DNA of 64,000 nt from the NCBI GenBank assembly GCA_964406405.1, contig CAYORN010000004.1, positions 1 to 64,000 on the forward strand, in the 5' to 3' direction. This DNA comes from an uncultured Alphaproteobacteria bacterium (GTDB lineage Bacteria > Electryoneota > RPQS01). The notes beneath the pieces were generated by a model. The model searched no databases and had not been told where the DNA came from. It was given only the letters and a program-made list of their open reading frames with translations. Of this stretch, positions 20 to 16,628 are shown one piece after another; the first letter of the stretch is position 1; each line of letters opens with the position of its first letter. The position numbers and the translations under genes are program-made.

Positions 20-81
20 TGGCGGAGAGACGGGGATTCGAACCCCGGATACCGGTTGTGCCAGTATGCACGCCTTCCAAG
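20..81 (-). repeat. 62-nt direct repeat identical to the 3' part (anticodon loop through CCA) of tRNA-Ser(GGA) at 16629..16690; putative distal att site of a tRNA-integrated island
   Basis: 62/62 identity to 16629..16690 in the same orientation; identity ends abruptly on both sides. Confidence 0.8.
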
Positions 82-317
82 GGTTGCAAAGTACGGTATT
101 TTCAGGTCAAACGCGATGACATCAGGCCAGTTCTCGGGCGATTTGTCGTGCGGAGGCGTGTGAGTTAGAGCATCCAGATCGGACCAAGGGGGCTTGTTAA
201 TCGGCTTATGAGAGTCCGCTACGGCAATTGCTCGCCAAATGCGAATTAGCCTCGCAGAATCGGGGTAGGGAAGAGGCTGTTTTCGCGAGGCGGTTACTGA
301 TCAGACGATGGCGATTG

Positions 318-346
318 ACAAAAAGGCTCCCCATTGCTGAGGAGCC
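318..346 (-). terminator. Rho-independent terminator (minus strand): stem GGCTCC/GGAGCC with 10-nt loop followed by TTTTTGT
   Basis: hairpin ggctcc-ccattgctga-ggagcc at ~325..346, with A-run 318..324 on plus (T-run on minus); ~75 nt downstream of the stop of CDS 422..1006. Confidence 0.6.
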
Positions 347-421
347 GTTCGCTTGTCGAAATCAGCCGCTGTTCGAGGTGTGTTGATCTATGAGACTTGA
401 ATGCCCAAGGCGGGATTGTAT

Positions 422-1006
422 TCATCGGCGCATGATCTCGCTTCCAGTATTCTGATGACGGCCTTTTGTTGGTTGCGTTGTGATGGAGCCGTTGCCGGGC
501 ATGTGAATGGCGGCGGGAGCGCTGCCCGCGCTGGAGGTCACATTGTAGAAGTACTTCGAGGCCGGCAAGGACACGGCCCCCACGTCCGTGAATGTGTTCG
601 TCGCGCTCGTGCCCAGCAGATTTAGCGGACCGGGCGTGAACGTGGGTGTCACGTCGCGATAGATCGTGTAGAGCATAGCACCGTTGATTGCGCCCCAATC
701 GAGCTTCATGTTCGTTGACGCGGGTTGACGCCGGATTACCAAGTCCTGAATCGGGCTTAAGGGCGAAGCCGCAAACGAGGGTGTAAGAAAACCTGCCGAG
801 AGCACGAAGTTCGCACTGGAGGAGATGCCGATGGGCGTGGGCTGGCCGAAGGCGCTGTACAACCGGAAGTCAGCCGAGGTACTCGCTGCTCCGCCCGCAT
901 CCAAGACGCTCTTGGTGATGCGGAAGTTTTCGCTCTGTTGCGGTTGAGCAAAGAGTGCAGAACCGCACAATAGTGCGCAGATGAGGATGAACAGAACACG
1001 TTTCAT
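422..1006 (-). CDS. hypothetical secreted protein (signal peptide), last gene of a 3-gene minus-strand operon
   Basis: ORF with N-terminal hydrophobic signal peptide MKRVLFILICALLCGSALFA; start overlaps stop of upstream gene 1008..3104. Confidence 0.5.
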   Translation of the reverse strand: MKRVLFILICALLCGSALFAQPQQSENFRITKSVLDAGGAASTSADFRLYSAFGQPTPIGISSSANFVLSAGFLTPSFAASPLSPIQDLVIRRQPASTNMKLDWGAINGAMLYTIYRDVTPTFTPGPLNLLGTSATNTFTDVGAVSLPASKYFYNVTSSAGSAPAAIHMPGNGSITTQPTKGRHQNTGSEIMRR

Positions 1007-1007
1007 C

Positions 1008-3104
1008 TTACTTCCCCTCCTTCATGGTCTTTTGTTCAGCAGCTTCGAGCGTCTGCACCCGAGCGCGCAGAGCAGTGTTCTCCACTTCCACGGCTTCGAG
1101 TCGCTTCGCCAACTCCTGAATGGCCGCCAGCGCGATGCCGTCGGGGTCAATCGTGGAAATGCCGAGGCTGTCCTCGCCGAGATGGAACGCGCTCCAGAAA
1201 TCCTGCGCCATCGGACCGATGTGCTCGATGGATGGGTCTTGCGACTTGTAGCTCCATTGCTTGATCGGAAGCTGAGCCACTCTGTTGAGCACATCCTTCG
1301 TATCCACGAGCCGGAGGTTGCGCTTCAGGGTGGAATCGGAAACGGCCACCCATGCGCCTGCGCCTGCCGCCAAAGTCACACCAGAGGTGAGAGTGGAATT
1401 GGAGTAGATTTGTGTCCCACCCGAGGCTCTCACGCGGAACTGATTGTTGGCCATGGAGGAGAATAAGGTGTTGGTCGAATCGGCCCACACGAACGAGCCT
1501 ACATTATCCGCGTTGGCGTTACGTCCGGCGGCAAATGCATAGCGCGCGCTGGCGGTGTTGTTGTATCCGCCTGGAACAACAGCGCAGAAATCCGATGCGA
1601 CGTTGCTGTAGCCGCCGCCCACCGTAGCACGGTCACCGCTGGCATCGTTGATGTGGCCGCCGCCCACGGTAGCATAGTTGCCGCTGGCAGTATTTTTTGC
1701 CCCCCCACCAATAGCCGAATAATCGCCTGTGGCAGAATTGCTGTCAGCAAGTGAGGCCCCACCGCCGCCGGCGACGACCGCGTAATCTCCTCGGGCATGA
1801 TTGAACCGGCCGCCGCCCACCGTGGCGTGGTCGCCGCTGGCAGTGTTTGAAGCGCCGCCGCCCACGGTGGCATAATCGGTGGCAGTGTTGTTTTCGCCGC
1901 CGCCGACTGTCGCCGATGCACCGCTGGCATTATTGGTTTTGCCGCCACCGATCGTCGCCCAAGTGTTGCTGGCGATGTTTCTTGACCCGCCGCCAATCGT
2001 TGACTTGTCTCCTGTCGCTGAATTTGAGTCAGCCAAGGCTGGACCACCGCCACCAGCTACTACCGAGTATTGGCCACGTGCTGCATTGTGCGATCCTCCA
2101 CTCACCGTGGCTGCAGATCCGCCGGCAGTGTTGCCGTCTCCTCCTCCCACGGTGGCCCTATCTGAACTAGCATTGTTGTTTTGGCCGCCGCCGACCGTGG
2201 CGAAGCCTGCGGTGGCAGCATTGTTACCTCCACCACATGAAACGGCAAAGGGGGCAGAGGCGGTGTTGTAACTCCCGCCACCCACCGTGGCATACATACT
2301 TGCCGTGTTTGAAATGCCGCCGCCCACTGTAGCCCATGAGCCGCTGGCGGCATTTGATTCGCCGCCGCCCACTGTGGCAGCGCGGCTGGCAGTGTTTCCG
2401 CTGCCGCCGCTTACCGTGGCATGGTAGTCGCTGGCGGTGTTGCCAACGCCGCCGCCCACCGTGGCTGTCCAGGCGGTGGCAGTGTTTGAGGAGCCGCCCC
2501 CCACCGTGGCAGCTTGGCCGCTGGCCACATTCGCGCCGCCGCCACCCACCGTGGCATACCAGTAACTGGCAGTGTTATCAAAGCCGCCGCCGACCGTGGA
2601 ATAGTCGCCGGATGCCGTATCGTACGCTCCTGCCACGAAAGCATTGAGCCCGGGATTTGAATTGTATTGGCCGATATTCGCCTTGTCCGCAATGGTCACA
2701 GCACTTGTGATGGCACCGCCACTGGCGCCATCTACGGTTCCCACGCGATAGGAATAGCCAACCGAGACAACGCGCGAGCGGGGTGTCATCTCGGAGTTGT
2801 TGCCGACTGTAATGCCCAGCCAGACTTGCGCATTATTGAAAACAGCATCACCAAGAGTGGTTATCTGTCCGAGCCGAACATTGAAGAGGCCATCAGTAAT
2901 CGTCACGGATGGACGCGCTTCCGTCCACAGCAGACTTCCCGCCGTGGAATCGGTGTAGATTTTGAAGGTCATGGCTACGGTGGTGTCCAACGGACTCCCG
3001 TCCGTGGCGGTGAGGAAGCCCTGATAGTTAACCTGCTGCGGGACGGCGAACGCAATCGAAACCGTCATGACAAAGAGAATCAAATTGAGAATGTGGCGTT
3101 GCAT
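1008..3104 (-). CDS. tail-fibre-like surface protein: signal peptide, ~25 tandem Gly-rich 13-aa repeats (ATVGGGxxNTASxxx) and a C-terminal peptidase-S74 intramolecular-chaperone auto-processing domain
   Basis: C-terminus SDSTLKRNLRLVD...WSYK...EHIGPMAQDF followed by coiled coil matches the S74 chaperone-domain signature (SDxxLKxNI...YxYK...HIGxIAQE). Start taken at internal Met (MQRHILNLILFVMTVSIAFA signal peptide) rather than the TTG at 3284. Confidence 0.75.
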   Translation of the reverse strand: MQRHILNLILFVMTVSIAFAVPQQVNYQGFLTATDGSPLDTTVAMTFKIYTDSTAGSLLWTEARPSVTITDGLFNVRLGQITTLGDAVFNNAQVWLGITVGNNSEMTPRSRVVSVGYSYRVGTVDGASGGAITSAVTIADKANIGQYNSNPGLNAFVAGAYDTASGDYSTVGGGFDNTASYWYATVGGGGANVASGQAATVGGGSSNTATAWTATVGGGVGNTASDYHATVSGGSGNTASRAATVGGGESNAASGSWATVGGGISNTASMYATVGGGSYNTASAPFAVSCGGGNNAATAGFATVGGGQNNNASSDRATVGGGDGNTAGGSAATVSGGSHNAARGQYSVVAGGGGPALADSNSATGDKSTIGGGSRNIASNTWATIGGGKTNNASGASATVGGGENNTATDYATVGGGASNTASGDHATVGGGRFNHARGDYAVVAGGGGASLADSNSATGDYSAIGGGAKNTASGNYATVGGGHINDASGDRATVGGGYSNVASDFCAVVPGGYNNTASARYAFAAGRNANADNVGSFVWADSTNTLFSSMANNQFRVRASGGTQIYSNSTLTSGVTLAAGAGAWVAVSDSTLKRNLRLVDTKDVLNRVAQLPIKQWSYKSQDPSIEHIGPMAQDFWSAFHLGEDSLGISTIDPDGIALAAIQELAKRLEAVEVENTALRARVQTLEAAEQKTMKEGK

Positions 3105-3390
3105 GGGGAATCTCCATTTTCGGTTACTGTGAGAAATATTGGCGTTGTAATTATAATTAGAGCATTCAGAACCGTTTGCCGGCTCACGGCGGAAACGGTT
3201 TATTTTTGGGAAGTATTTCACATTCTGAAGGAAGGATTTTGTTGCGTTGCCTGTCGGGTGTGTTGCCAAAATATCTGGCGCCAAGGAAAACTACGCCACG
3301 AATAATTTCGGCAAGACGGATCCCGGCGAAGCACACACAGCATGCCTCACCTTCAGAATGAACTCGTACGTGTCGCGCCTGAATGACGCC

Positions 3391-6300
3391 CTATCTGTTT
3401 GCAATCACTCGATAGAACAGTTTGTCCTGTACCGAATACGACGTGGTGATTGTGGTGTCCGGCGTCGTGGTCAGGAGACTGAATCCACTGTCGGGAGTGT
3501 TCGAGCGTTGCACATCATAACTGGTGGCGAAGCCCACCGGATTCCAATAGAGCCGTAATTGCGCACCGTCCACTCGCATGACCAGCACCGGTGGCGAAAG
3601 CGTGATCACCAACACGGTTTGCACTCCCGACCACGGCCCTGGCCCACAAGTGTTTTCACCCCTTACGCGCCAGTACCATATGCCGAGCGGCGCGCTCAGG
3701 ATTTGGTTGTAGCACAGCGCGGCGGTGTTGGCCGCAACGGGGGAGCCGAACTGCGCGTCGTCATCCCACTGGATGCGATACGTGGAGGCGTTGGCTACGG
3801 CAAGCCAGCAATACTGCTGTACGATGCCGCTCAGCACAACGGCGCCATTTCCGGGATTGCCCAGAGCGGGAGCTTGAGTGACGGTGGGGAGTAAAAGCCC
3901 CTGATCGGGCAGCGAGGCAGGTCCAGTACCACAGGTATTCCATCCGGAGACGGTGTAACTGTACGTTCCGGTTGGAGGTGTGTCCGTGCACGTCAGAATA
4001 TTCGCACCGACGGAGCACACTTGCTGGCCATTGCGATAAACGTAATATCCGTTCTCTCCCGCCACATCATTCCAGGTGATGACGATGTTGTTGCAACTGT
4101 TGTCCGTGGCGGCGACGCCGGTGACCTGCGGAGGCGGGGCAAGACGGGTGCCATTGTCGGAAAGAGATTGAAATCCATTGCCGCAGGAGTTATAGGCGTA
4201 GACGATGTAAGCATAGGTCCCCGGAGCGGGCGTATCAACACCGTTCGTTATGTTGGCATCCACGGTGTCGACAATGCCGCCGTTGCGGCAGACGTAGTAC
4301 CCGTCCTCGTTGCTGACATCATTCCAGGTAATGACGACGTTGTTGCAGTGGTCATCGGTGGCGGTGACGCCGGTGACTTGCGGCGGCAGACAGCAGCTCG
4401 GATTGGCGCACGCAGGACCAAGGTCCGTTACCTGTAGGCCATAGTTACCGGTAGCAGTCCCGTAGCCATGCACGAGAATCAAGTACTCCTCGCCAAGCCG
4501 AGAGCACCAGCCGACCTGCGAGACCAATGGGTTAAAGCAGTTGCTATTGTCGTTTTCGGCCGCGCAGACGAGAGCCGAACAGCCGCAGGTAAAGACGGAG
4601 ATTCTGCTATTGTAATTCGTCTCGTTGAGGCACAGGGTCGCCATCAGACTGTCGCCGGTTCCGATGACTTTGTGCCACACGCCAGGCGCCGTTGCCGGCG
4701 AGGAACATGCCGGAATTTCATCTAATGTGGCGCAGACAGTAGATCCAACATTCAAGTGATTTACCCCGACGACGATGGCATTCGCACACTGATCGTTGGA
4801 TGGTGGGCCTGTTGTGCCAACAACACGGATGCAGAAATCCCCTGCCGGAACAATCGCTACTGGCAGCCAGTACTGACCCGGGGAGAGGCCACCCCAGTGG
4901 AATGTAAACCGTGCATCAGCGCAAGTCGTTTGGTCAAACTCCAGCATGGTGTAATTTGTACCACAACATGATCCCGGGAAGAGACGGTTAAGAACCGAGC
5001 CATAAACAGGAGTCCCACAATACTGGACAGAGATATCCATGCACTGACTCAAGCTAAAGGTGTACCAAACTTCCGTCATTTCTATGGGAGTCTGCGCGCA
5101 ATCGCGTGTTGAGCCCAGGGTCGTGCCACATGTGGGTGTCGCCGCATTCACCGTAAGCGGAATCGCATTAGCGCAGTTGTCATTGAGGGGAGCGCAAGGC
5201 CTCCAGTTGATCTGAACCCGATAATCGCGGGGGAATGGCACACCCTCGTAGTTCTGCGGAGCGATGACGAGTGCGTACGTACCCGGGTTCAGGCAGGCCG
5301 TTCTCATGTCCATGCTCATGCATTCGGACGGATTCATGTAGGACATAGCTACCGTGCAGTTGCTTGTGTCCACGATGCTGACGAATAACGGGCACTCGGC
5401 GCCCCATGCGATCAGCTCGACGGTGTCGCGCTCCGCCAGAGTAAACAGGTACCAATCAGTATCGCGGTAAACGAAGCCGCCATACCTGTAAGTAAAGACA
5501 TGGCCGAATATGGTTTGGCCGTTCTGTACGGAGCTGAATTGGTGGGGAGTGGAATTGCAACCACCGTCAGGGTCAGTTTGCCAGAAGGTAGGATTGGAGC
5601 AATCCTCTGCGACCTCGATGACGTCCCCCGGTGTAGCCGTGACATCGCAGTTCGGGCACATTACGGCCTCGAGCACGTAATCCCCGCACGCGCCGCCGTA
5701 GCCGTCCACCACGACGTAGTACGTGTTCCCGGCATAGAGTTGAAGGCACTCGAGGTACGAGCGAAACGAAGCGGAGGCGCAGGGGCAGATCGAAGCATCG
5801 TCGCTGCAGGCGATGGGTGTCCCACTGCAGGAGTTCTGATAAACGTACAGCTTGGTGTCATAGCTCGAACGACACAAGCTGAAGCTTACCTGCTGATCGG
5901 TCGAGGGACTGTAGAAGTAAACCACGTCACTTGAGGTACTGCTCCACGAGCAGGCATAGTCGTAATCGTTGGCGTAGCTGCATGTACTGCCCGTCCCTCT
6001 AAACGGCAGAGACATGAAAATTGGGTTCGTGCAGTTGTCGCCTTGTGGCGCCTGGCGGCTGACGTTGAGGGTATAGTTGCCCGAATAAGAAGCGTATCCA
6101 TCGACCAGAATGTAATAAGTAGTACCGGCGTTCAGATAGGGACTGACCTGCGATCCCGTGCCGCAGTAATCGTCGTTGCAAGCCAGCGATGTACTGCCCG
6201 GACAAGAACCGCCATATCTAACATCAAGCATCGTGTCATAACCGCTGCCGCAGAGCGAAACATCATAAGTACCGGAGACCGTTGGTGTGAAGGTGTACAC

Positions 6301-7185
6301 TGCATCAGCCGCAGAAGGTCCACCACACGCAGGAATGTACTCGTTGCCCATGCCAGATGTGTTTTGAGAGTCTGTGAAGGGGACGGCTGAAATGGTGAGG
6401 CCCGGACAAACGTCAGGCCCGGAAGGTGGCGGCGGACCAGTGACAGTGAGTGTGTAGTTGCCGGAGTTGCTGCCATAACCGTCTACGATGATATAGTACG
6501 TTGTACCGGCATAGAGCGGCATGATGGTGATCTCGGATTGCAGACCACAGAAGTCGTCGTTGCAAAGTACAACCGTGCTGCCCGGACATCCTCCGCCATA
6601 GCGAAGTTCCAGCTCGGTATCAAAGCCGCTGCCGCAGAGCGAAACGGTGTGAGTTCCCGATACGACCGGCGTGTATTGATAAACAACGTCGGACGCGGAA
6701 CTGTTGCCGCAGCTCGGAGTGAAGTCATTCGACATCCCAGCCGTGGTTCCTGCATCGGAGTACGGAATGCCGGGAATCACAAGCGCGGGACAGTAGTCGG
6801 AGCCTTGGTCGAGCGGGTTGCCCGGCTCGCGCGGCCCGCGAATCTGTGCCAGCACTTGCAGAATCTGTCCGTCAATAACTTTCAGATTCTCACCGCGCAG
6901 TTCCATTTCCTTGCGCTGCCGAACCAGTTCGTTCAGCTCGTCTTGATGAGGATTCGGGGCCGTAAACTGCGGCGACGCGCCGGGGGCAATCGCTGAGAGC
7001 ATCTGCGAGTTTGAAGCACGTGCGTTGTTCAACACAGGAGACGGAGCGGTCGGAACGAGTTCGCTGGCGGACGTTGCCGGAATCGCTTTCGCCGGTTTAG
7101 CGGAATCAGGGGCGGGTTTTTGATCGGCGACGGACATCAAACATACGAGACCGAGAGCAGCAAACAAGAGAAAGAGCTTCTTCAC
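3391..7185 (-). CDS. large secreted multi-domain protein (1264 aa): signal peptide, coiled coil, four ~110-aa pre-peptidase C-terminal (PPC)-like repeats, Cys-rich modules, C-terminal Fn3-like domains
   Basis: repeated module '...DVVY.YTP.VSGT..VSLCGSG.DT.L..RYGG.CPGST...CNDD.CG...AGTTYYI.VDGY....GNYTL.V' x4; N-terminal MKKLFLLFAALGLVCLMSVA. Confidence 0.7.
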   Translation of the reverse strand: MKKLFLLFAALGLVCLMSVADQKPAPDSAKPAKAIPATSASELVPTAPSPVLNNARASNSQMLSAIAPGASPQFTAPNPHQDELNELVRQRKEMELRGENLKVIDGQILQVLAQIRGPREPGNPLDQGSDYCPALVIPGIPYSDAGTTAGMSNDFTPSCGNSSASDVVYQYTPVVSGTHTVSLCGSGFDTELELRYGGGCPGSTVVLCNDDFCGLQSEITIMPLYAGTTYYIIVDGYGSNSGNYTLTVTGPPPPSGPDVCPGLTISAVPFTDSQNTSGMGNEYIPACGGPSAADAVYTFTPTVSGTYDVSLCGSGYDTMLDVRYGGSCPGSTSLACNDDYCGTGSQVSPYLNAGTTYYILVDGYASYSGNYTLNVSRQAPQGDNCTNPIFMSLPFRGTGSTCSYANDYDYACSWSSTSSDVVYFYSPSTDQQVSFSLCRSSYDTKLYVYQNSCSGTPIACSDDASICPCASASFRSYLECLQLYAGNTYYVVVDGYGGACGDYVLEAVMCPNCDVTATPGDVIEVAEDCSNPTFWQTDPDGGCNSTPHQFSSVQNGQTIFGHVFTYRYGGFVYRDTDWYLFTLAERDTVELIAWGAECPLFVSIVDTSNCTVAMSYMNPSECMSMDMRTACLNPGTYALVIAPQNYEGVPFPRDYRVQINWRPCAPLNDNCANAIPLTVNAATPTCGTTLGSTRDCAQTPIEMTEVWYTFSLSQCMDISVQYCGTPVYGSVLNRLFPGSCCGTNYTMLEFDQTTCADARFTFHWGGLSPGQYWLPVAIVPAGDFCIRVVGTTGPPSNDQCANAIVVGVNHLNVGSTVCATLDEIPACSSPATAPGVWHKVIGTGDSLMATLCLNETNYNSRISVFTCGCSALVCAAENDNSNCFNPLVSQVGWCSRLGEEYLILVHGYGTATGNYGLQVTDLGPACANPSCCLPPQVTGVTATDDHCNNVVITWNDVSNEDGYYVCRNGGIVDTVDANITNGVDTPAPGTYAYIVYAYNSCGNGFQSLSDNGTRLAPPPQVTGVAATDNSCNNIVITWNDVAGENGYYVYRNGQQVCSVGANILTCTDTPPTGTYSYTVSGWNTCGTGPASLPDQGLLLPTVTQAPALGNPGNGAVVLSGIVQQYCWLAVANASTYRIQWDDDAQFGSPVAANTAALCYNQILSAPLGIWYWRVRGENTCGPGPWSGVQTVLVITLSPPVLVMRVDGAQLRLYWNPVGFATSYDVQRSNTPDSGFSLLTTTPDTTITTSYSVQDKLFYRVIANR

Positions 7186-7598
7186 GTGATACTCCGGTTA
7201 CATGATAAAATGTTCACAAGAGACGCATAAAAGAAAAGCGGGCACACGGCCCGCTTGCTACTCAACGCTGATATATCTGACCCAGCCGGGTCTGACAATG
7301 TGCTGGCCTTAAATAAACAGCCCAATTTTGGCAAAGTCAAGAACCATCATGATTCGCTTCAACTTTTCATGATTCTCTAAGACTCTATGAGCATTCAACC
7401 TAAACCTAATGATCCCCGCAAGCAACGCCTGTAAGAGAAATTGCCTCGCGAAACTCTCTCCCTTTGGACATTCGTGGCCCGCATCCGGGTAAGATGATCT
7501 CGATCAGATCACTGCAGGTCTTGCCCGCTGGCATGTTTCCTATCGGCTCGCCGATGGAGCGCAAGTTGCCACGGAAACCCGCTCCCACGCGTGCCATA

Positions 7599-7630
7599 CA
7601 CCACCACCTTCGCTATGATGGTGATGAAGG
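7599..7630 (-). repeat. conserved ~32-nt intergenic motif, copy 1 (core cttcgctatgatggtgatgaagg on plus)
   Basis: 23/23 core identity with copies at 11151..11173 and 14066..14088; lies ~420 nt upstream of minus-strand CDS 3391..7185. Confidence 0.7.
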
Positions 7631-7906
7631 GCGACAACCAGTGCTGATTGCAAGTTCTCAGCTTGACGCTGCGCGGCATCTCGATGCCCTTTGGCCTTCG
7701 TCATTTTTGCCATGAGGGTGATGAAGGTGAGCCTTCAAGTCAGATGCTCCGTAGTTGAGTCACATCTGGGTCACGCAAGTGAGTGCAAGTGCCACCAAGT
7801 GACGACAAGTGACGGCCAATGTCGTGACCTGTGTCACGGGCCTTGGGGTGCGGAAGAGCTTGATTTCGCGGGGGTGTTACTGTCTGGGCGAGGCTGACGA
7901 GAAACA

Positions 7907-7932
7907 GGCTCCCCATTGCGGAGGAGCCGGCT
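7907..7932 (-). terminator. terminator-like hairpin (minus strand), near-identical in sequence to the hairpin at 325..346
   Basis: ggctcc-ccattgcgga-ggagcc ~25 nt downstream of the stop of CDS 7952..9391; followed on minus by TGTTTCT (weak T tract). Confidence 0.45.
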
Positions 7933-7951
7933 GAACTTCCGTCATCGAGGA

Positions 7952-9391
7952 CTACTTCAAGAGCATGAGTTTCTTATTCTGCAAGAACTCTTCTGCATCC
8001 AGCCGCACGAAGTAAATTCCCGATGCCAGCCTGCTCCCGTCAAACGTCAGGCGATGAGTTCCGGCTTCAACAAAGCCATCTCTCAGCACGGCCACTTCAC
8101 GCCCCAGCAGATCAAACACGCGCAGGGAGACATGCCCCGCTCTGGGAAGATCGTAAGCAATCATCGTCGAAGCGTTGAACGGATTCGGGTAGTTCTGGTA
8201 GAGCGCGTAGTCCTCGATTAAGGCAGGAGTGGGCATCAACGCCGTCGTTTCGACTGTGACGCAGGCGCACCCTTCATTGTCCGTCAGGTTGGTAACCCGT
8301 AGGATCCACGTCGAGTCGGAGACCCAGAACGATTGCTGGTGGAACGCTCCCACCGGAGGACAACCATCGTCTCCGCAGAAACTCGCGCAATCCAGGCTGA
8401 CCGTGAACAACGGCTCCCCGCCTTCATTGCTGTAGAAAAACACCTCCCGGGTTCCGCCCGGCGTCAGATGCAGACACGTGGATATTTCTGGCGTAATGAC
8501 GATTTCCGCCAACTCGCAGGGCGCTTCGCTGAGGTAGTGATCATACAATGTGTCCAGACTTTCATCAGCCGAACGGGTTCGACGCGGCAACGCCGGAATT
8601 GCCGCCGCTCCCTGCTCTGTCTCCGGACCGGAATACGACCAGCGGGCTGAATCCAACAGCAGGCATTTGGCGGCAATGATGCTGTCGAGTAGAACTCTGT
8701 GGTGCGCGTACGGCTGATGCTCAAGCCACGAGCCGGATCCCGAGAACCCTGCGGCGACCGCGGCAGCACGCAAGGCAGCGCGCAGCGAATCCACCACCTG
8801 TCGCTCGCCCCAAGCCATCAAGCCCACATCGCCGTATCTCACTCGCCCACTGTAGCCCTGTGGATGCGGGCTGCTGGAATGGATAATCCCGCCGAACGTG
8901 TCGGTGACCGAATGAATCGTGTCATTGGGAGCCAGCGACGACCAACAGGACACAACCTGAACCAGAACCACAGAGTCCGGCTTGGCCATCAGCCGGTAAG
9001 GCTGATAGTCGGTGAGTCCGGTTCCGCCGCCTTCGCTACCCTGCGGAGCAAAACCGGAGTGGTTATTGCCGTTGATCAGAATGCCGCCGCCGGCAATCAG
9101 CTCGCCGCCTTCCAGCTCGGTTCGGATGCCGTGGGCGATGACAATGAACGTATCACCGCTATGCGTCGTGCACCAGATGCTGTTGATGTCTCCGCCGACC
9201 GCCAGCGTGTCGCCCGGTCGAGCGATCTCATGATAGTAGCCCTCCATGAACGAAGCGATGCCGCTGTTCGACTCTTCTGATATCCAGACTACCTTGCGGG
9301 CGTGACCCGGGTTGGCTGAAATCATCATGATCAGTACGAGTGCTGTTATCAATCCCGCACATGTGAGACGTCTCATGTTGGTCTCCTTCAC
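7952..9391 (-). CDS. secreted protein with T9SS (Por) C-terminal sorting domain; function unknown
   Basis: C-terminus ...[33 protein letters not shown]...[22 protein letters not shown]; N-terminal signal peptide. Confidence 0.7.
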
Positions 9392-9576
9392 AGTAAAAGG
9401 CAGCTGGCATAGGAGTTGAAACCACGCGCCTCAGCTTCCGGTGCAGTGCACGCGCAAAAAAGGCGAGGCTTCCTGCCCCTGCGGGAAACCTCGTTGCAAA
9501 GTATGGACCTTTAGTGAAACTGCCCCGGTCACACCGTGCACAGGCGCGGCTGGAGTGTACCCCAAAAACTGGACAG

Positions 9577-9741
9577 TCAGAAGTGTAGCGTTAGATGGGG
9601 TGTTTGGGGTTGTTTTAGTTTAAGTTCGAAGGCGACCGGGGATAGATATCCGAGAGCCGAGTGCAAGCGTTTCCGGTTGTAAACTTGGTCAATGAAGTAG
9701 GGCAGCCGCGCCTGTGCCTCTTCGAATGTTTTGTATGCCTT
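9577..9741 (-). pseudogene. remnant of an IS3-family transposase (C-terminal end of the DDE/rve domain only)
   Basis: translation ...KTFEEAQARLPYFIDQVYNRKRLHSALGYLSPVAFE matches the conserved C-terminus of IS3-family OrfB (..YNxxRxHSxLGYxSPxxFE); no upstream remainder of the transposase. Confidence 0.6.
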
Positions 9742-9743
9742 CG

Positions 9744-9775
9744 GCCTCGTTTTCTCGCTATGATGGTGATGAAGG
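9744..9775 (-). repeat. conserved ~32-nt intergenic motif, copy 2 (core tctcgctatgatggtgatgaagg); abuts the IS3 remnant
   Basis: 22/23 core identity with other copies; ~355 nt upstream of CDS 7952..9391. Confidence 0.65.
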
Positions 9776-9982
9776 TAGCTACTCATGCGAATGGTTCGTA
9801 TGCCATGCATGCCACTATGCGGCCACATATTCAATCCCCGGAATCGTTTTATTCTCTTGCACAGCGATGCGGTGCTTGCTGGTGCAGGTGCTGTTGTCGC
9901 CCTCTTGCTCAATGACGCTGGCGGAAAGCACTCGGCACTAAACTATATCTCTCAAACCAGGCGCCAAGGGAACAAGTGCCAA

Positions 9983-11116
9983 CTACGGAGTTCTGGAACA
10001 ACGGAATCCGATGAAGTTGTTGCGATTCGCCGGATTGTTGTCGATGCGAGAGGCGCACCGGCTGTTGGAACTATTATTGCTCCACGCGCCACCCCGTATA
10101 ACACGGGTGGAGCCGCGAGGATTATCAATCCATGCGCTGCCGTCAGTAGGAGCGCCATTATAGCTTTCGTGCCAGTCATCTTCGCACCATTCGTCAACAT
10201 TCCCGCACATGTCATAGCAACCCGCCGGACTGATGCCATATGGGTAGGTGCCGACCGGTGAAGTATCAACGTAGCCATCGGCTATGTTGTTGTAGATATT
10301 GGCATTGGTCGGAACCCACGTGTCTCCCCACGGCCATTGGCGATTGTCTGCATTTCCTTTCGCCGCGCGTTCCCGTTCCGCTTCGGTCGGCAGACGCTTC
10401 CCCGCCCAAGTGGCATAGGCACGGGCATCATCCCAAGACACCATCACCACCGGATAGTTCGCATATGCAGGATTCGTGAAGTAATTGGGAGGAATGCCCT
10501 CGAAACCGGGATCGTCAGGATAAGCCCGTGCTGTCGCATCACAGAACAGCTTATACTGGGCGTTGGTCACCTCGTACTTGTCAATATAGAACGCCGGAAC
10601 GTTCACCGTGTGGATGGGTAGCCCATAGGGCCACCAGTAATCAGCTCCCATGTCGTACGGCCCCGCCGGAACCAGAACCATGCCTGCGAAATCTGCTGTG
10701 GAGAACGACCAAACAGGTCCCGATGTCGAATGATCGTGGTTATCATGTGCCACGATTTGCCAGTAGTAGGTCGTGCTGTCTGCCAACGTTTCCAGACTGT
10801 AGGTAGTTTCAGATTGAACCGGACTTACCAATGGCGGCGTGCTTGATGTGCCAAAGTAAACATCGTAGGTCAACAGGTCACTATCGGGATCACTGCAGCT
10901 CCACGTGAGATTCACGTCGATAGATTGGTCCGTTGCCTGATTCGCAGGTACAGGATTTGACGGCAGATTCGGCGCGCTGTTGTCTGTTGGTTCCGCTGTG
11001 TCATCACTCTTGTCGCAACCATTGAGAAGCACCAGCAGGGTGATGCTTACGGCGATGCAAAACTTTCTTGGGCAACTCATGATGTGATCCCTATAATTGT
11101 GGATTGTCGAGTTCAC
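9983..11116 (-). CDS. formylglycine-generating enzyme (FGE)-sulfatase family (SUMF1/EgtB/PvdO-like) lipoprotein with N-terminal Fn3-like domain
   Basis: MVLVPAGPYDMGAD...YEVTNAQYKLFCD...YPVVMVSWDDARAYATWAGKRLPTEAERERAAKG...RVIRGGAWSNN...FRCSRTP; lipobox LLNGC. Confidence 0.8.
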   Translation of the reverse strand: MNSTIHNYRDHIMSCPRKFCIAVSITLLVLLNGCDKSDDTAEPTDNSAPNLPSNPVPANQATDQSIDVNLTWSCSDPDSDLLTYDVYFGTSSTPPLVSPVQSETTYSLETLADSTTYYWQIVAHDNHDHSTSGPVWSFSTADFAGMVLVPAGPYDMGADYWWPYGLPIHTVNVPAFYIDKYEVTNAQYKLFCDATARAYPDDPGFEGIPPNYFTNPAYANYPVVMVSWDDARAYATWAGKRLPTEAERERAAKGNADNRQWPWGDTWVPTNANIYNNIADGYVDTSPVGTYPYGISPAGCYDMCGNVDEWCEDDWHESYNGAPTDGSAWIDNPRGSTRVIRGGAWSNNSSNSRCASRIDNNPANRNNFIGFRCSRTP

Positions 11117-11141
11117 AGAGATGATTGTGCCTGCGCCACCT

Positions 11142-11173
11142 CGTCGTCATCTTCGCTATGATGGTGATGAAGG
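11142..11173 (-). repeat. conserved ~32-nt intergenic motif, copy 3; ends only ~30 nt upstream of the start codon of CDS 9983..11116
   Basis: cgtcgtcatcttcgctatgatggtgatgaagg; identical core. Confidence 0.7.
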
Positions 11174-11401
11174 CGGCTTACGCATGCAAAGAACCACCAG
11201 AGGTGCTCTTCGCGACGCAAGGCCAACTTTGCCGAAGATATTGATGGGAAACAGGCATGGCCTGTTAGCGGCGCTCTTTCCGATGCATCCTCCGGCGCTT
11301 CCAACAGTTCAAGACTTGCGAGCCTTGCTTGCGCTTGTGTAGAACGGAACGGTTGTGCTCTGACAGCGCAAGAGCGAATTGGGTCAAGAATTGAGGGAGA
11401 C

Positions 11402-12121
11402 TTACTTAAACACAATGATGCACACGGGAATGGCAAACATAAGCCCTAATGCGAGAATCGGCAACATGGCTCCGAGGCTTCTTACAAACGCAACTTGTAC
11501 ATCTCCATCTGCTGCGAGTGATCGTGAATACAACCATTTGGCTATGTACCATGATGAACAAGCCCACAGGATCGCGGCGACAACATCAATGATCAAATGT
11601 TGCTTCACAAACAACGTCGAGATGGAGATCAGTACTGCCATTACAGCAATTGCGATCTCAAGGGATTTTCCTAAGCCTTGTCGCCAACACATGAAACACA
11701 TGAGCCAACTGGCAATAACATGCATGCTGGGAAGCTTGTTCGCACTCGGGCTGAAATCATGTGCATAAATGACTGCCAGCACTCGTTCTGATAGTGTCGT
11801 GCCAAGAATCGGATGCGGAAGAGAAACAGGAAGTAGGAAGTAACATGCAAACGCTGTCATATTGGCTATCAGGAATGCAACCGTACCCAAGGCAAAGCGG
11901 GACCAGTTCTTGGTCACGATCAGCGGCACAACAGGCATCACATAAGCCAACATGTAGATCCACACAAACGCTGGGACCAGCGGTATCTGCTTGTCAAGAG
12001 CGGTTGCAAAATCTCGTGCAGGAAATCCGGAAGCTAGATTACCTACGACTAAGAAGCACAATGTCCAGACGACATATGTGATCAACCACGTGGAAGAAAA
12101 GAACACTCTATGAGAGGTCAT
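11402..12121 (-). CDS. integral membrane protein, PAP2-superfamily-like (phosphatidic acid phosphatase type 2 / inositol-phosphorylceramide synthase-like)
   Basis: six or more hydrophobic segments; PSMH...HLIIDVV resembles PAP2 motifs PSGH / SRxxxxxHxxxD; family assignment tentative. Confidence 0.45.
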   Translation of the reverse strand: MTSHRVFFSSTWLITYVVWTLCFLVVGNLASGFPARDFATALDKQIPLVPAFVWIYMLAYVMPVVPLIVTKNWSRFALGTVAFLIANMTAFACYFLLPVSLPHPILGTTLSERVLAVIYAHDFSPSANKLPSMHVIASWLMCFMCWRQGLGKSLEIAIAVMAVLISISTLFVKQHLIIDVVAAILWACSSWYIAKWLYSRSLAADGDVQVAFVRSLGAMLPILALGLMFAIPVCIIVFK

Positions 12122-12330
12122 CGGTGCTCATGAAATGGTGTGTGTGCGAACGTCAGATTGACAACGTCACATGACTACATGGTATCGCGCGCCCCAAATT
12201 CTGCTTAATGACCTGGTGTTAACGTCCTGAATAGGGGGCAGCAGGCGCGGCTGCTTCACACGTGGGTGCCATTGTCATTCTTTTGCGCCACGACGATGCG
12301 CAAAGCGCGAGCCGGGATTCCCGCATAATT

Positions 12331-12370
12331 CGCAGATGCTTTCATCTTCGATATGACGGCAATGACAAGC
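12331..12370 (-). repeat. degenerate copy of the ~32-nt motif (tttcatcttcgatatgacggcaatgacaagc), ~210 nt upstream of CDS 11402..12121
   Basis: shares ttcatcttcg.tatga.gg..atga..ag with the other copies; lower identity. Confidence 0.4.
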
Positions 12371-12395
12371 GCACTTCATCGTCAGAAACAGTGCT

Positions 12396-12830
12396 TCAGA
12401 AGCTGCTCCACCCCCTCCGGCGTAACCGTATCGTTCGCCATGTCGAACACAGGCCATACAGCTTTATGTCGAGAATGGGCGTGCCGTGAATAGCGTCGAG
12501 TCCTTGTACTTGAAGTGTCCTCTCCATAACTGACAGTAGGTGAACTGCTGTTATTCCGATAGGATTGAGGCGGTGCTTGGCACGCTGCGCAAAGATTCCT
12601 GGTAATGGCATGTCATCACGGTCCCGCGGACGACAAATGATATGCTTACCTGAATCAAACTCCGCTTCGTGCATCCAATAGACTACCAGAATGTGGGACA
12701 AAGCCTCAAGACCACGTAACCCTGAAGCTAACTCGGGGGCAATTTCGATCAGGGCTACAACGCTACCCCAGCCGTTGTCCCTGCTTTCTGCTACTGCCGA
12801 CTTCACTTTGCCGATGGGTCTCATTTCCAT
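12396..12830 (-). CDS. tsaA: TsaA/YaeB-family SAM-dependent tRNA methyltransferase (tRNA-Thr t6A37 m6 methyltransferase-like)
   Basis: MEMRPIGKVKSAVAESRDNGWGSVVALIEI..EALSHILVVYWMH..PRDRDDMP..GIFAQRAKHRLNPIGITAVHLLSV...LDIKLY matches the UPF0066/TsaA fold. Confidence 0.65.
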   Translation of the reverse strand: MEMRPIGKVKSAVAESRDNGWGSVVALIEIAPELASGLRGLEALSHILVVYWMHEAEFDSGKHIICRPRDRDDMPLPGIFAQRAKHRLNPIGITAVHLLSVMERTLQVQGLDAIHGTPILDIKLYGLCSTWRTIRLRRRGWSSF

Positions 12831-12910
12831 GGCAACTCACTTGCCCCCAAGGAGATGAGTCACGGTCATCCGTCTTGGTCCCAACGCAACGACATTCACC
12901 ACGTACGCAA

Positions 12911-13771
12911 TTATTGACCGAGAATGATTGGTAATCCGTTCTTGCCAGATCCAATAATTACAGTCTTTGCGTTTTGAGACTTTGCAATATCCATTGTAGC
13001 CTCAATACCCTTCCAGGCAAGTAATTTGTCGCTAATGCTTTCAGATATGATCTTCTGGAAGTCCTTGATCCCTTGGGCTTCGATTCGTTTTCGCTCAGCT
13101 TCTTGCTTTTCTTTTTGCAGAACAAACTCCATTTTCTGGGCTTCTTGTTCAGCCGTTGCCTTAGCATTAATTGCCTCAGATACGCTTGCAGGCAACTTCA
13201 AACTGCGCATCGGAGTTTCTTCAATCGTGATACCACGAGGACCGACAACCGTCGCCAAATCAGTTTTCAACTTACCGGCGAGAATGGTACGGTCAGCAGT
13301 ATAAAGAGCTTTTGCCTCTGATGTCGTCGTGATATCACGTGTTACTGAACGAAAATTGGGTTCTAGGAGAACCAATGGATCACCGTTCTGTACGGTTTGC
13401 ATCATGACTGGCCACGCTTCTTTTGTGACATGGAAGAAGCAAGATACTTCAAGTTCACACGACAGACCTTCTTTGGATGGCGTGATCATTGTTTCTTTGA
13501 TCTCTTGGGTGCGTGTCGGCTTATAGATTACATCAGCAAACGGGTTCACGAAATTGATTCCGGGATCAAGTGCAATTGGCTGGATCACACCGAACAAGTC
13601 AACAACACCACAACTGCCATTAGGAACGGTACGCACCATACTGAAAAGTGCGAAGATTGCTGCGAGAGCAATAATAATACCTTTCCCCCAACTGGGAACT
13701 GCATTGGACTCCCATTTTACGAAAAACGAAACGACAAATAGTGCAAGAAGCGACATCGTTAGATAGATCAT
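12911..13771 (-). CDS. SPFH/band-7 (prohibitin/HflC-like) membrane protein
   Basis: N-terminal TM segment, SPFH core, C-terminal coiled coil (AEQEAQKMEFVLQKEKQEAERKRIEAQGI); no NfeD partner gene adjacent. Confidence 0.7.
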   Translation of the reverse strand: MIYLTMSLLALFVVSFFVKWESNAVPSWGKGIIIALAAIFALFSMVRTVPNGSCGVVDLFGVIQPIALDPGINFVNPFADVIYKPTRTQEIKETMITPSKEGLSCELEVSCFFHVTKEAWPVMMQTVQNGDPLVLLEPNFRSVTRDITTTSEAKALYTADRTILAGKLKTDLATVVGPRGITIEETPMRSLKLPASVSEAINAKATAEQEAQKMEFVLQKEKQEAERKRIEAQGIKDFQKIISESISDKLLAWKGIEATMDIAKSQNAKTVIIGSGKNGLPIILGQ

Positions 13772-13813
13772 CGTTGTTACCTTTCTAAGGTTGTTTGGGT
13801 TTGCTGTTTTGTG

Positions 13814-13837
13814 TGGCAGAGGGGATTCGAACTCCCG
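13814..13837 (-). other. orphan tRNA 3'-end-like fragment (T-arm plus acceptor; minus strand reads CGGGAGTTCGAATCCCCTCTGCCA) with no full tRNA body
   Basis: GTTCGAATCC T-loop flanked by complementary arms and ending ...CTGCCA; upstream 5' half absent; ~40 nt upstream of the SPFH start. Confidence 0.5.
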
Positions 13838-13963
13838 AATTCACCACATATTGTACGTCGTCAGCCAAATGGCACACTTTCCTGGGTGACATAATTGACC
13901 AATAGAAGAGCACCTTAGGGACAGAGCCCGCTGTCTCGAATACTCATAATCCAGCGTCGTGGC

Positions 13964-14170
13964 ACCATCACCGCGTCCGCTATCATCTTCGCTTGATGGT
14001 GATGAAGGCAGCAGCCGAGGACAGGTTGAGCAGTGGTTACGCACCGCTTCCGGCGACGCCGTTATCTTCGCTATGATGGTGATGAAGGAACGCAGACGGA
14101 GACGGACTGACCAGTGCTGACGCTCCGATTCCGGCTATCGCCGTCATCTTCGCCATGATCGTGATGAAGG
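13964..14170 (-). repeat. mini-array of three copies of the ~32-nt motif (cores 13987..14008, 14066..14088, 14147..14170) spaced 79-81 bp, separated by unrelated 48-49-nt spacers
   Basis: cgccgttatcttcgctatgatggtgatgaagg / cgccgtcatcttcgccatgatcgtgatgaagg / ...tatcatcttcgcttgatggtgatgaagg; same orientation as the solitary copies; 210-400 nt upstream of CDS 12911..13771. Confidence 0.7.
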
Positions 14171-14499
14171 TGGTGCCCGGAAATCATATTACCAACCAGA
14201 GTACTCTGTTTCCGCTTGCTGAATCGACGGGCAATAGATAGGCGGCAGCGACAGGCCACTCTCCGAAGTTGTTTCGTATCAAGATAGTAAAACGTCGATC
14301 CGGAATCAACGGTTGCTCCGGCCGAATTTTGACGCAAGGCGGCGACAAAACGCGAGCGAAAAACTCGCGTCCGAGTGCCAGTGCACGAAATGCACGCGTA
14401 ACATAAACAAACCATTAGAGACTGCCGTATACTGTGCTGAAGCACCAGTGTGCTGTTCTCGTCCTGTTCGCTAATGACACTCCGCATCTCCGTCGCCTT

Positions 14500-14543
14500 C
14501 GACCAAACAAAAACCCTTGTTAAACAATAGTTTAACAAGGGTT
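14500..14543 (-). terminator. Rho-independent terminator (minus strand): perfect 14-bp stem AACCCTTGTTAAAC/GTTTAACAAGGGTT, 4-nt loop, then TTTGTTTGG
   Basis: perfect inverted repeat at 14512..14543; T-rich tract on minus strand (A-rich 14500..14511 on plus). Confidence 0.6.
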
Positions 14544-14547
14544 AAAA

Positions 14548-14574
14548 GGTGGAGACGGCGGGAATCGGACCCGC
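14548..14574 (-). other. second tRNA 3'-end-like fragment (minus strand GCGGGTCCGATTCCCGCCGTCTCCACC) lacking a 5' half
   Basis: T-arm-like stem GCGGG/CCCGC around TCCGATT, then acceptor-like CGTCTCC-A-CC; resembles the 3' region of tRNA-Ser(GGA) (..CCCCGTCTCTCCGCCA). Confidence 0.35.
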
Positions 14575-14647
14575 GGCACTCTTCTCTCCAAAGAGCATTA
14601 AATCAAACAATCACAGCACTGTAGCACATCGCGGAGAACACACTCAA

Positions 14648-15880
14648 CTAGTGGACTGACTCATCTACAGTGATGGGTAGAGGCTGCGCAGTTTGATGCG
14701 GGCGTCTTTGGTCGTAAACTGCCAGTTGATTTTCGCAATGCGACCGTTGCGTGCCGTTTCCCAAGCGGTGACTTCGCGACGCAACCGCTCGCTGCTGGCG
14801 AGACGGCGCTTGAGACACTGTTTCGTCAGGATGCCCAACTCGATCTCCGCGATGTTCAGCCAACTGCCATGCTTGGGCGTGTAGTGGATTTCCAGGCGAT
14901 CCGTCAGTCGTTTCGCTTCCGCCGGCGGGAAGGTCGCATAGAAGGACGCGGGGGGGTGCGTGTTCAGATTGTCCATGATCAGGACGATCCGTTCGGCATC
15001 GCGATACATCGTGTTCATCAGCTCTCGCATCGTCAGCGCCCAGCCCTGCTTCGTGCGCTGTTCAGTCACCTGCACATAACGCCTTCCCGTCAGCGGATCG
15101 CTGAACAGGAAGAGATTGGCCACCCCTTTGCGCACGTACTCGGCATCGTAGCGCGCCGCCTGTCCCGGCACCATCGGGAGCGGATGACGGATCTCGCCTA
15201 ACAGTTGCTTGCTGGTCTCATCCATACAGATCAGCGGACGCTGGGGATCATACGGCCGCTGGTAAACATCCAAAACGTCTTCCATGTGGAAGACATAGTC
15301 CGGATCCGCCTTGGTGGGGATCACCCACATCTCTTGAAGCCACGGCTTCAACGCATTTTTTTTAGCGTGCGCCGCACCGTTTCGCGCGCGACGTGGGGGC
15401 AGTATTCGAGGACGACCATCTGCTGAGCCAGCAGCCGCACCGACCACTGCGCGTGGCCTTCCGGCGGCTCGCTGCAGGCCAAAGCAATCAGATGCGCCTC
15501 GGCATTGCCATCCAACACGCGTTCATACTGACGTGTGGTCGGCCGGCGTTCCAGAGCCGCCTCCCAGCCGTCTTCGACGAAGCGTTGGCGCACCCGCTCA
15601 ATCGTGGAGATCGCCACGCCCAGCGCGTCGTGGATCTCGGGATCGCTGCGCGAGAGGCCATCAGGACTGGTATCCGCCTGCAACAGAATGCGGGCATGGG
15701 CCTGCTTGCGAGCGGATGACTTCCCTTTGCGCGTCAGCTCAAGTAACTGTTTGCGCTCCGCTTGCGAAAGCACCACACGGTACTTCTTGCGCATGACTTC
15801 CTCCGGTTATGCTGTCAGCAATCTCCCGGAGTATAACATGGCTCAAAAAACAACTCGAATCAAGTAGGTCGCTCCACTAG
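14648..15880 (-). mobile_element. IS630-family insertion sequence (~1.2 kb) with imperfect terminal inverted repeats CTAGTGGAC / CTAGTGGAG
   Basis: two overlapping transposase ORFs bracketed by inverted CTAGTGGA at 14648..14656 and 15873..15880; exact ends and TA duplication not resolved. Confidence 0.6.
14665..15794 (-). CDS. IS630-family DDE transposase made by programmed -1 frameshift (orfA 15348..15794 HTH; orfB 14665..15447 DDE) at an A8 slippery run (15355..15363)
   Basis: orfA: HTH (AISTIERVRQRFVEDGW). orfB: DDE core ...LIMDNLNTHPP...HYTPKHGSWLNIAEIELGI. 100-nt overlap contains CTAAAAAAAATGC, and the -1 product joins ..TLKK to NALKPWLQEMW. Confidence 0.8.
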
Positions 15881-15925
15881 GCGCAGGCAAAAGCATTTTA
15901 TGCGTTTGGCGTACTAAATCGCTAT

Positions 15926-16537
15926 TCAAGCCGTCGTCGGGTACGTGGCGCTTGCGCGTTGAAACAGCAATGCAGATGAGACAAACAGCGCGACGAAGAA
16001 CGCATTTAAGATGAAGACACCCACTACACCAGGGGGTTCTTCCACGGTGATAACCGGCTTCCAGATAATCAGCGCAATCACGGGGACCAACGCCTGAGCG
16101 AGCGCCGTCGCGAACAACGCGCGCGCCATTCTACGCGGCTTCAAGCGCGCGATGGCGGCACCGATGAATCCGACGACGAGCACACCGAGATACAGCACGT
16201 TGGCGGGGTGGTCCTCGGATCCAATGATCCCGACGGCAAGATTTAACCAGATGAGGATCAATCCTGCCGCCACTGCAATGCCGACGGCGACCCGGTACGC
16301 GATACTGTCCGACATTCTTGTTATCAACACATACGCGAGACCAGTGCCGAACAGGAGGACGCCCATGACAATGAAATCACCCAGGCTCCAGGCCACTTCA
16401 TCGGTGAACTGCATCGCCAACAAGGGTATCAGCAATATGAACGCTGTCGCCAGCGCAATGCGGATAATGTTTTTGTTTTGCACAATGATAAATGTCATGT
16501 TCGCTCTAATAATTCCCGCGGATGTTTCGACGAACAT
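15926..16537 (-). CDS. hypothetical polytopic membrane protein
   Basis: 203-aa ORF with 5-6 hydrophobic helices; no recognisable motif. Confidence 0.45.
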   Translation of the reverse strand: MFVETSAGIIRANMTFIIVQNKNIIRIALATAFILLIPLLAMQFTDEVAWSLGDFIVMGVLLFGTGLAYVLITRMSDSIAYRVAVGIAVAAGLILIWLNLAVGIIGSEDHPANVLYLGVLVVGFIGAAIARLKPRRMARALFATALAQALVPVIALIIWKPVITVEEPPGVVGVFILNAFFVALFVSSALLFQRASATYPTTA

Positions 16538-16628
16538 CCAGAGAGCGCAACCGAATAATCCTCTTTCTTCCTTCTGCCGCGCCTTCGGCGCGACCGTCCT
16601 GCCTCCTTTCGGAAGTGGAAGTTACATT

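Follow-up and report, generated by a model that had tools for sequence, protein, structure and literature searches.

Among the fibres described so far, those closest to the one reported here belong to the S74 subgroup of the Bdellovibrio MAT proteins, in which a signal peptide and a conserved N-domain of ~130 aa precede a trimeric fibre and an S74 domain with an SDxxxK motif (PMC10769870). Such non-phage, S74-capped fibres are recognition tools in this predator; the MAT paper describes the surface element that binds the fibre N-domain as unknown (PMC10769870). Here, we analyse a three-gene locus at the start of a 64,000-nucleotide stretch of DNA (the window; positions 1 to 64,000 of contig CAYORN010000004.1, assembly GCA_964406405.1, deposited under an uncultured Alphaproteobacteria bacterium). 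Based on sequence comparison and structural models, our favoured reading, to which we assign a probability of about 0.75, is that the locus encodes a Sec-exported, trimeric, MAT-like surface fibre together with a dedicated small partner protein. The genes and the signals that flank them are as follows.

1008..3104, minus strand: fibre gene, 698 aa; ATG start with GGAG 8 nt upstream
422..1006, minus strand: partner gene, 194 aa; ATG 1 nt past the fibre TAA
3391..7185, minus strand: giant gene, 1264 aa, secreted product; GTG start with GGAG 7 nt upstream
325..346, minus strand: terminator-like hairpin with a T run, 76 nt past the partner stop
7236..7256, minus strand: terminator-like hairpin ahead of the giant gene, where the transcription unit has its upstream limit

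The three open reading frames (ORFs) lie head to tail, all on the minus strand (7185..3391, 3104..1008 and 1006..422 in the ORF listing), and inspection of the giant, fibre and partner products found signal-peptide-like N-termini on each. The AGGAGG site of the partner gene sits inside the 3' end of the fibre gene and, with only 1 nt between the fibre TAA and the partner ATG, the partner appears to be translationally coupled to the fibre gene. The earlier note on this DNA had placed a small secreted protein beside the fibre gene, and the 194-aa partner, with its signal-peptide-like start 1 nt from the fibre stop, agrees with that description. A search for minus-strand hairpins predicted no terminator-like hairpin between the three genes, of which the giant and fibre genes are separated by 286 nt, and a single transcription unit is plausible from these signals. 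The TTG at 3284 was also considered as the fibre start and was rejected: the extension that it adds opens without a signal-peptide-like segment, while the ATG at 3104 opens directly into one and is preceded by GGAG. A fibre protein of 100% identity (P0001) sits on a 359-kb NCBI contig. The hairpin at 325-346, after the partner gene, has a near-identical copy at 7907-7928, after a gene upstream that encodes a cargo protein of the type IX secretion system (T9SS); both read GGCTCCCCATTGC[T/G]GAGGAGCC.

Architecture of the fibre

The fibre protein could be divided into six parts on the basis of profile matches, conservation and an AlphaFold2 (AF2) monomer model with a mean pLDDT of 86.7.

3045..3104, minus strand: signal peptide, residues 1-20, MQRHILNLILFVMTVSIAFA followed by VPQQ; by inspection, with residues 2-17 helical in the AF2 model
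2760..3044, minus strand: N-terminal beta-sandwich, residues 21-115, probably related to the Bdellovibrio MAT N-domain
2700..2759, minus strand: conserved linker, residues 116-135, '...YSYRVGTVDGASGG...'
1515..2687, minus strand: shaft, a left-handed beta-roll like the YadA/UspA1 heads, with ~24 repeats of 14-15 aa
1341..1514, minus strand: pre-S74 tip, residues 531-588
1011..1340, minus strand: Peptidase_S74 chaperone, residues 589-698, closing with a 45-aa C-terminal helix

Residues 9-138 matched the NCBIfam model NF053851 (Bdello_MAT_N) with E=2.9e-9 and 36.9 bits, below the curated cutoff of 60, and the same model was matched by 49 of 54 fibre homologues, the best at E 4.6e-12. In the AF2 model residues 25-112 form a beta-sandwich with a pLDDT of 80-94, and residues P22, N26, Y27, Q28 and G29 at the mature end are kept across the family. 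Conservation is highest of all in the linker (mean pairwise identity 0.58), in which residues 116-128 are disordered in the AF2 monomer (pLDDT <50); residues 116-135 are therefore a candidate for an inter-chain or partner contact. The pre-S74 tip is the least conserved of the structured regions, with a mean pairwise identity of 0.39.

In the order of its parts, namely a signal peptide, a beta-rich N-domain of ~100-130 aa, a long fibre and a C-terminal S74 domain, the protein resembles MAT proteins such as Bd3182 (PMC10769870), as it does in the many paralogues that each genome carries outside prophages. It differs from them in an N-domain score below the curated cutoff, in a shaft built as the beta-roll of trimeric autotransporter adhesin (TAA) heads from 14-15-aa repeats, and in a host that is KSB1-like, T9SS-bearing and no known predator. 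It differs further in the tandem arrays and the partner gene described below; the terms 'operon', 'neighbour' and 'tandem' are absent from the MAT paper (PMC10769870).

The shaft repeats follow the consensus ATVGGGxxNTASGxx over residues ~150-530, with an autocorrelation peak at lag 15. The earlier note had counted ~25 Gly-rich 13-aa repeats; the repeats are there, ~24 in number, and their period is 14-15 aa rather than 13. The UspA1 head (PDB 3pr7) was matched by phmmer at E=1.2e-22 and by Foldseek at E=5.5e-8, Foldseek on the fibre model also matched CbpF and EibD, and the beta-roll is modelled with a pLDDT >90. In both sequence and fold, then, the Gly/Asn-rich repeats of 14-15 aa are like those of the TAA heads of Moraxella UspA1, Yersinia YadA and Fusobacterium CbpF. 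This strong head match, along with the name 'trimeric autotransporter adhesin' that JGI gives to one relative, could be taken to mean that the fibre is a classical TAA; likewise, matches to Pfam LbR_Ice_bind (28.4 bits) and PDB 3ult (E=0.007) could be taken to mean an ice-binding or antifreeze beta-roll protein. We consider either identity hardly credible. The LbR_Ice_bind score falls short of the 30-bit cutoff and stems from nothing more than the Gly/Asn-rich roll common to both, so the ice-binding assignment was rejected. The classical TAA assignment was rejected for want of an anchor: Pfam and NCBIfam found no YadA-type C-terminal membrane anchor, the S74 domain and helix standing there instead. 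Unlike TAAs, the fibre also has no C-terminal beta-barrel, coiled-coil stalk or neck; its trimerisation is presumably driven by S74, and it probably runs in the opposite direction, the N-terminus forming the base.

The C-terminal S74 domain claimed in the earlier note is borne out by Pfam PF13884 (Peptidase_S74), matched over residues 589-640 with E=8.6e-11 and 42.4 bits against a gathering cutoff of 22. The nucleophile motif S589-D-S-T-L-K594 is encoded by nt 1340..1323 of the minus strand, and the HIGPMAQDF segment that the note had quoted is present as well. Of 54 homologues, 43 have Ser at residue 589, 10 have Cys and 1 has Thr, and D590 is retained in 51 and K594 in 53; the S589/K594 pair, with the five-residue Ser...Lys spacing, is thus a kept pattern and the one expected of an active self-cleaving chaperone. 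In the 10 homologues of alignment A2 with Cys in place of Ser589 the Asp and Lys are retained, and these may represent a thiol version of the self-cleaving chaperone. Foldseek aligned the S74 region to the intramolecular chaperone domain of MyRF (ICA, 7dc3) with a TM-score (target) of 0.51-0.54 and a probability of 1.0, but with E of only about 0.05. The fibre-family profile searched against PDB sequences gave a weak MyRF match (E=0.016), and phmmer with the single S74 sequence against PDB gave spurious phosphatase matches only. Pfam membership, the Ser...Lys spacing of five residues and a C-terminal position after a beta-structured, here putative, trimer are shared with endosialidase, T5 pb1 and MyRF.

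By analogy with endosialidase, T5 pb1, MyRF and Bd3182, three S74 domains would nucleate the fibre trimer and set its register. Each chain would then cut itself before S589 through the S589/K594 dyad, and the chaperone would leave, exposing the mature tip. Because the pre-S74 region is positioned just before S589, cleavage would leave it at the C-terminal end of the mature fibre.

The partner protein and the fibre arrays

The partner consists of a signal peptide, an N-module, an Fn3 domain and a basic tail, in that order.

782..946, minus strand: N-module, residues 21-75; three 'SxNFxL' units, nearly invariant
527..778, minus strand: Fn3-like C-module, residues 77-160; AF2 pLDDT >93
425..526, minus strand: basic disordered tail after the C-module

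The linkage between this protein and the fibre was examined in a fibre-seeded set of 70 genome loci, the two contig loci L071 and L072 and the 20 kb that open the window, 1.16 Mb in all. Within this set the fibre genes are grouped on one strand, in arrays whose size runs from 1 to at least 6 members. All 35 N-module ORFs found there directly abut the 3' end of an array, and of the 63 arrays whose downstream end can be seen, 35 have an N-module gene next in line. A second, independent scan of metagenomes, with the N-module as seed, found the end of an S74 gene directly upstream of 39 of 42 evaluable N-module genes. The partner gene is a fixed companion of the fibre, and the coupling of the two genes is reciprocal. 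No gene family besides the fibres and the partner recurs around the arrays, and this includes pilins, chaperones and ushers.

Five Herpetosiphon genomes likewise have the pair, and there the N-module is trailed by a Pro/Thr-rich linker. At L015, L022 and L070 the array-terminal N-module protein bears Ig-like domains and a T9SS sorting domain, and is therefore surface-directed.

The partner family comprises 179 homologues of ~180-220 aa, all annotated as 'hypothetical', and a precomputed Pfam entry exists for only 1 of the 120 members listed. The N-module, with the family pattern QPQQSENFRITKSVLDAGG..S.S.NF.L.SAFGQPTPIG..SS.NF.L.AGFL, matches no Pfam family. It is the best conserved part of the partner, yet is unfolded in the AF2 monomer (pLDDT 42-54), and for this reason Foldseek on the partner model yields only generic Fn3 matches. 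A profile of the N-module alone recovered 947 representative proteins, mostly with the module directly after the signal peptide; the domains that co-occur in 85 of these are Por_Secre_tail (29), FlgD_ig (28), dockerin (20), CHU_C (14) and cohesin (8). The literature searched yields no description of the partner protein, the N-module or the array-plus-partner organisation. The fibre itself is a new member of an already known, MAT-like kind.

One described protein that bears on the function of the partner is PamT of the candidate phyla radiation (CPR), for which the role of a tip pilin and an incomplete Ig-like fold have been proposed (bioRxiv 10.64898/2026.03.03.709456). Of 50 partner-family members, 47 weakly match the N-terminal part of the NCBIfam model CPR_pilus_PamT, so that the N-terminal ~75 residues of the family resemble the start of PamT. 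This match would suit an account in which the fibre is real and the partner is a distal tip or cap, a periplasmic assembly chaperone or a pilin-like subunit engaged in donor-strand exchange; the N-module that does not fold alone in AF2 would suit it too, and the three internal repeats could fit a three-fold axis, whichever end of the fibre they meet. We nevertheless think this account unlikely. The partner scores 32.5 bits against a PamT cutoff of 240 and covers only positions 8-81 of the 241 in the model, the rest of the protein differs, the host phylum is another, and no pilin, chaperone or usher family, indeed no neighbours but fibres, recur beside the arrays. With regard to a chaperone in particular, N-module proteins with T9SS sorting, dockerin or cohesin domains resemble surface scaffolds.

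Returning to a surface fibre with a dedicated partner, the partner would dock, anchor or help to assemble any fibre of its array, probably through the N-terminal base or the linker. Judging from synteny and domain context, it is most likely that one partner serves all fibres of an array and docks their N-terminal base or linker to the surface. A more general and distinctly tentative proposal, which we would not yet favour, is that the N-module is a 'fibre socket', that is, a docking element for MAT-type bases that tethers any of the interchangeable fibres of an array to the surface. The socket would be a monomeric adaptor whose three pseudo-repeats lie on the three-fold axis of the fibre, or one that takes up the linker strand, with the Fn3 domain, the basic tail or a T9SS anchor as the tether to the surface. 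If this is true, a socket would be shared by the 947 representative clusters, by T9SS, dockerin and cohesin proteins and by the start of CPR PamT.

These findings have a bearing on fibres of this kind elsewhere. The more than 100 related loci indicate that they are widespread in KSB1, Calditrichota and Herpetosiphon, and several genomes carry more than one array, with array size reaching at least six genes. The linked partner gene is a concrete candidate for an anchor or assembly factor, and its N-module is a new, unannotated module. Herpetosiphon aurantiacus DSM 785 is a culturable organism that bears the pair, at about 2.77-2.79 Mb of CP000875.1 (L036). If the partner turned out to be irrelevant, the locus would merely be another member of a large family of adhesin-like bacterial fibres.

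The tRNA-flanked island and the question of a phage origin

The earlier note had proposed either a bacterial trimeric surface fibre or adhesin system or a relic of a phage receptor-binding module, and the setting of the locus in the chromosome bears on this choice.

20..81, unstranded: exact 62-bp copy of the 3' end of tRNA-Ser(GGA), repeating 16629-16690 of the intact gene at 16629-16721
82-16628: ~16.5-kb island bracketed by these direct repeats

Since the window opens with the 62-bp tRNA repeat, the three genes lie at the edge of the island. An island bounded by tRNA-Ser repeats, with remnants of insertion sequences (IS) inside, is one reason to consider that the fibre is the tail fibre of a phage, a tailocin or a contractile injection system, or a decayed remnant of one, on an integrated element. 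Other reasons are that S74 is typical of phage fibres and spikes, and that NCBI names the relatives 'tail fiber domain-containing protein'. Proteins that combine a YadA-like head with S74 also occur in predicted viral proteomes, namely those of uncultured Caudovirales and metagenomic giant-virus bins.

Against this stands the content of the island, in which searches with Pfam and PHROGs found no capsid, terminase, portal, tail, sheath, baseplate or integrase genes. Of the window beyond the island, ten large ORFs were scanned, and all proved to be chromosomal genes of an ordinary kind, with none of phage type. The earlier statement that no phage structural genes lie nearby thus holds for the island and for these ten ORFs. 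The negative covers the sequence from nt 1 rightward, the left flank being out of view, although the repeat at nt 20-81 marks the island edge and so the end of the integrated element. Both the fibre and the partner bear signal peptides, which are normally missing from virion proteins. The fibre matches no PHROG, and a comparison with 50,697 phage genomes gave just 12 matching records, confined to residues 568-672 (the S74 region) and at 33-37% identity. In a peptide scan the fibre gave 170 stretches in bacterial genomes against 4 in viral contigs, and the partner gave none in viral contigs. A related fibre-fibre-small array adjoins the chromosomal genes gap/pgk/tpi. Unlike phage S74 proteins, then, the protein upstream of the chaperone here is no virion component, and only the S74 module is shared with GenBank phages. 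We regard a phage-type tail fibre as very improbable. A prophage was rejected for lack of hallmark genes, and the relic of a receptor-binding module has no support at the present locus, given the S74-only sharing with phages, the missing PHROG match and the absence of phage genes from the island. An old origin shared with viral fibres is plausible, because viral proteomes hold proteins with a YadA-like head and S74.

The other half of the earlier proposal, a bacterial trimeric surface fibre or adhesin system, gains support from the bacterial family, the signal peptide, the MAT_N-like domain, the TAA-type shaft, the S74 domain and the chromosomal relatives. The relatives of the fibre amount to more than 6,000 matches, which are bacterial (best 8,000 candidates examined); the best match in the scan of bacterial genome contigs has 55% identity, and related genomes carry many fibre copies.

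Several observations weigh against a MAT-like surface fibre with a dedicated partner. In addition to the unseen left flank and the viral head-plus-S74 proteins, the MAT N-domain match remains under its curated cutoff, and the TAA-type beta-roll of the shaft is unlike the intertwined beta-prism of solved MAT tips. An adjacent N-module gene is absent from 13 of the 41 arrays with an N-domain, about a third, and some arrays without an N-module gene are instead trailed by PPC-type proteins. Finally, Pfam and NCBIfam found no T9SS sorting domain (Por_Secre_tail, CHU_C) in the fibre, giant or partner, and no outer-membrane anchor was found in any of the three.

The giant gene, the remaining island and the host

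The giant protein contains a signal peptide, a low-complexity region, a short coiled coil, Cys-rich units and Fn3-like domains, with 63 Cys in all.

4423-6798, minus strand: six PPC-like units, from an iterated profile
3394-4389, minus strand: four Fn3-like domains

The units span residues 130-249, 257-378, 383-506, 539-652 (weak), 669-790 and 798-921. Pfam PPC (PF04151) does not match the giant, even at E<=10. Residues 287-370 match the PPC domain of the secreted metalloprotease of Vibrio vulnificus (PDB 2luw) at E=4.5e-6, and homologous repeats ~40% identical to the giant units are called PF04151 by Pfam in relatives, among them M36-, S8- and trypsin-type proteases and other PPC-bearing proteins. 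The link to PPC is thus transitive only, through 2luw and the repeats of relatives, which makes 'PPC-like' a fair term. The description in the earlier note, a 1264-aa protein with four PPC domains, was right in size and inexact in domains, there being five clear PPC-like units and a weak one, without a Pfam PPC call. Unlike the PPC-bearing proteases, the giant has no protease domain, reaches no Pfam PPC score and is unusually Cys-rich.

It could be argued that the giant is an obligate member of a single three-gene system, for example as a receptor-binding or scaffold part. The genes share a strand, no terminator is predicted between the giant and fibre genes, and giant-type proteins occur near arrays at 8 loci; six loci hold a large protein that ends in the Fn3 C-module of the partner, of which at least three match the giant repeats. 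These 8 are only 8 of 70 related loci, and position and strand vary among them. The giant and fibre genes are 286 nt apart here, and the last Fn3 domain of the giant matches the partner C-module only weakly (domain E=0.016), a value that ruled out a clear C-module common to the two proteins. Chance adjacency is likely, because secreted proteases of these phyla often carry the Cys-rich domain. An obligate giant is therefore quite unlikely in our view, less so than a phage fibre and more so than a tip or chaperone role of the partner. The giant is a loosely linked neighbour and no fixed part of a system; it is a secreted binding protein and probably co-transcribed here. The 'operon' of three genes in the earlier note accordingly stands in so far as the strand is shared and the signals of an operon are plausible, and is overstated as a unit.

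The large secreted proteins that end in the Fn3-like C-module of the partner do so with E=1e-9 to 1e-19 (L003:15533-19024, L005:7785-9959, L013:3989-5230, L033, L034:1571-4186 and L046:4377-5816). At least those of L003, L005 and L013 also match the Cys-rich PPC-like repeats of the giant. The Fn3-like C-module may commonly serve to localise or attach proteins.

With regard to the host, the closest relatives of the window proteins are found in metagenome-assembled genomes (MAGs) of KSB1 and Calditrichaeota. Several array-bearing MAGs are labelled 'uncultured Alphaproteobacteria', and this label looks wrong. T9SS type-A C-terminal sorting domains are encoded at 7952-9391, 22379-23893, 33186-34622, 34630-36039 and 37466-39052 of the window, that of 22379-23893 being judged from sequence inspection only, and the source organism is a heavy user of T9SS. 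Arrays of at least six fibre genes, and several arrays per genome, were seen in related MAGs (L002/L021, L050, L008 and other loci). At least eight loci come from the MAG with CAZGVT01... contigs and at least five from the MAG with CAYUIF01... contigs, a repertoire that may compare with the 21 MATs of Bdellovibrio.

Every recognised island gene lies on the minus strand, and a second tRNA-Ser (CGA) is located at 16901-16991. The other genes of the island encode a T9SS-sorted protein, an FGE-sulfatase-like protein, PAP2, TrmO-like and SPFH proteins, a membrane protein, an IS3 fragment and a split IS630 transposase. The product of 9983-11116 belongs to the FGE-sulfatase family and carries an Fn3 domain; its scores fall far short of the GldK/PorK and PvdO cutoffs. 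The gene probably encodes a distinct lipoprotein that resembles formylglycine-generating enzymes. An IS630-type transposase at 14665-15794 is split into overlapping ORFs, one with the helix-turn-helix part and one with the DDE_3 part, and 9577-9912 encodes only the C-terminal part of an IS3-type integrase core. The split IS630 and the IS3 fragment are signals of island decay or rearrangement.

An element of ~36 nt with the core CTTCGCTATGATGGTGATGAAGG occurs in six copies in the island, at 7598-7633, 7695-7730, 9743-9778, 11141-11176, 14056-14091 and 14138-14173, with zero copies in the other 47 kb of the window. The copies are on one strand, between recognised island genes and each upstream of a transcription unit; one falls in the IS3 fragment ORF. 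The element may serve as a regulatory site common to these units, or it may be a small mobile repeat.

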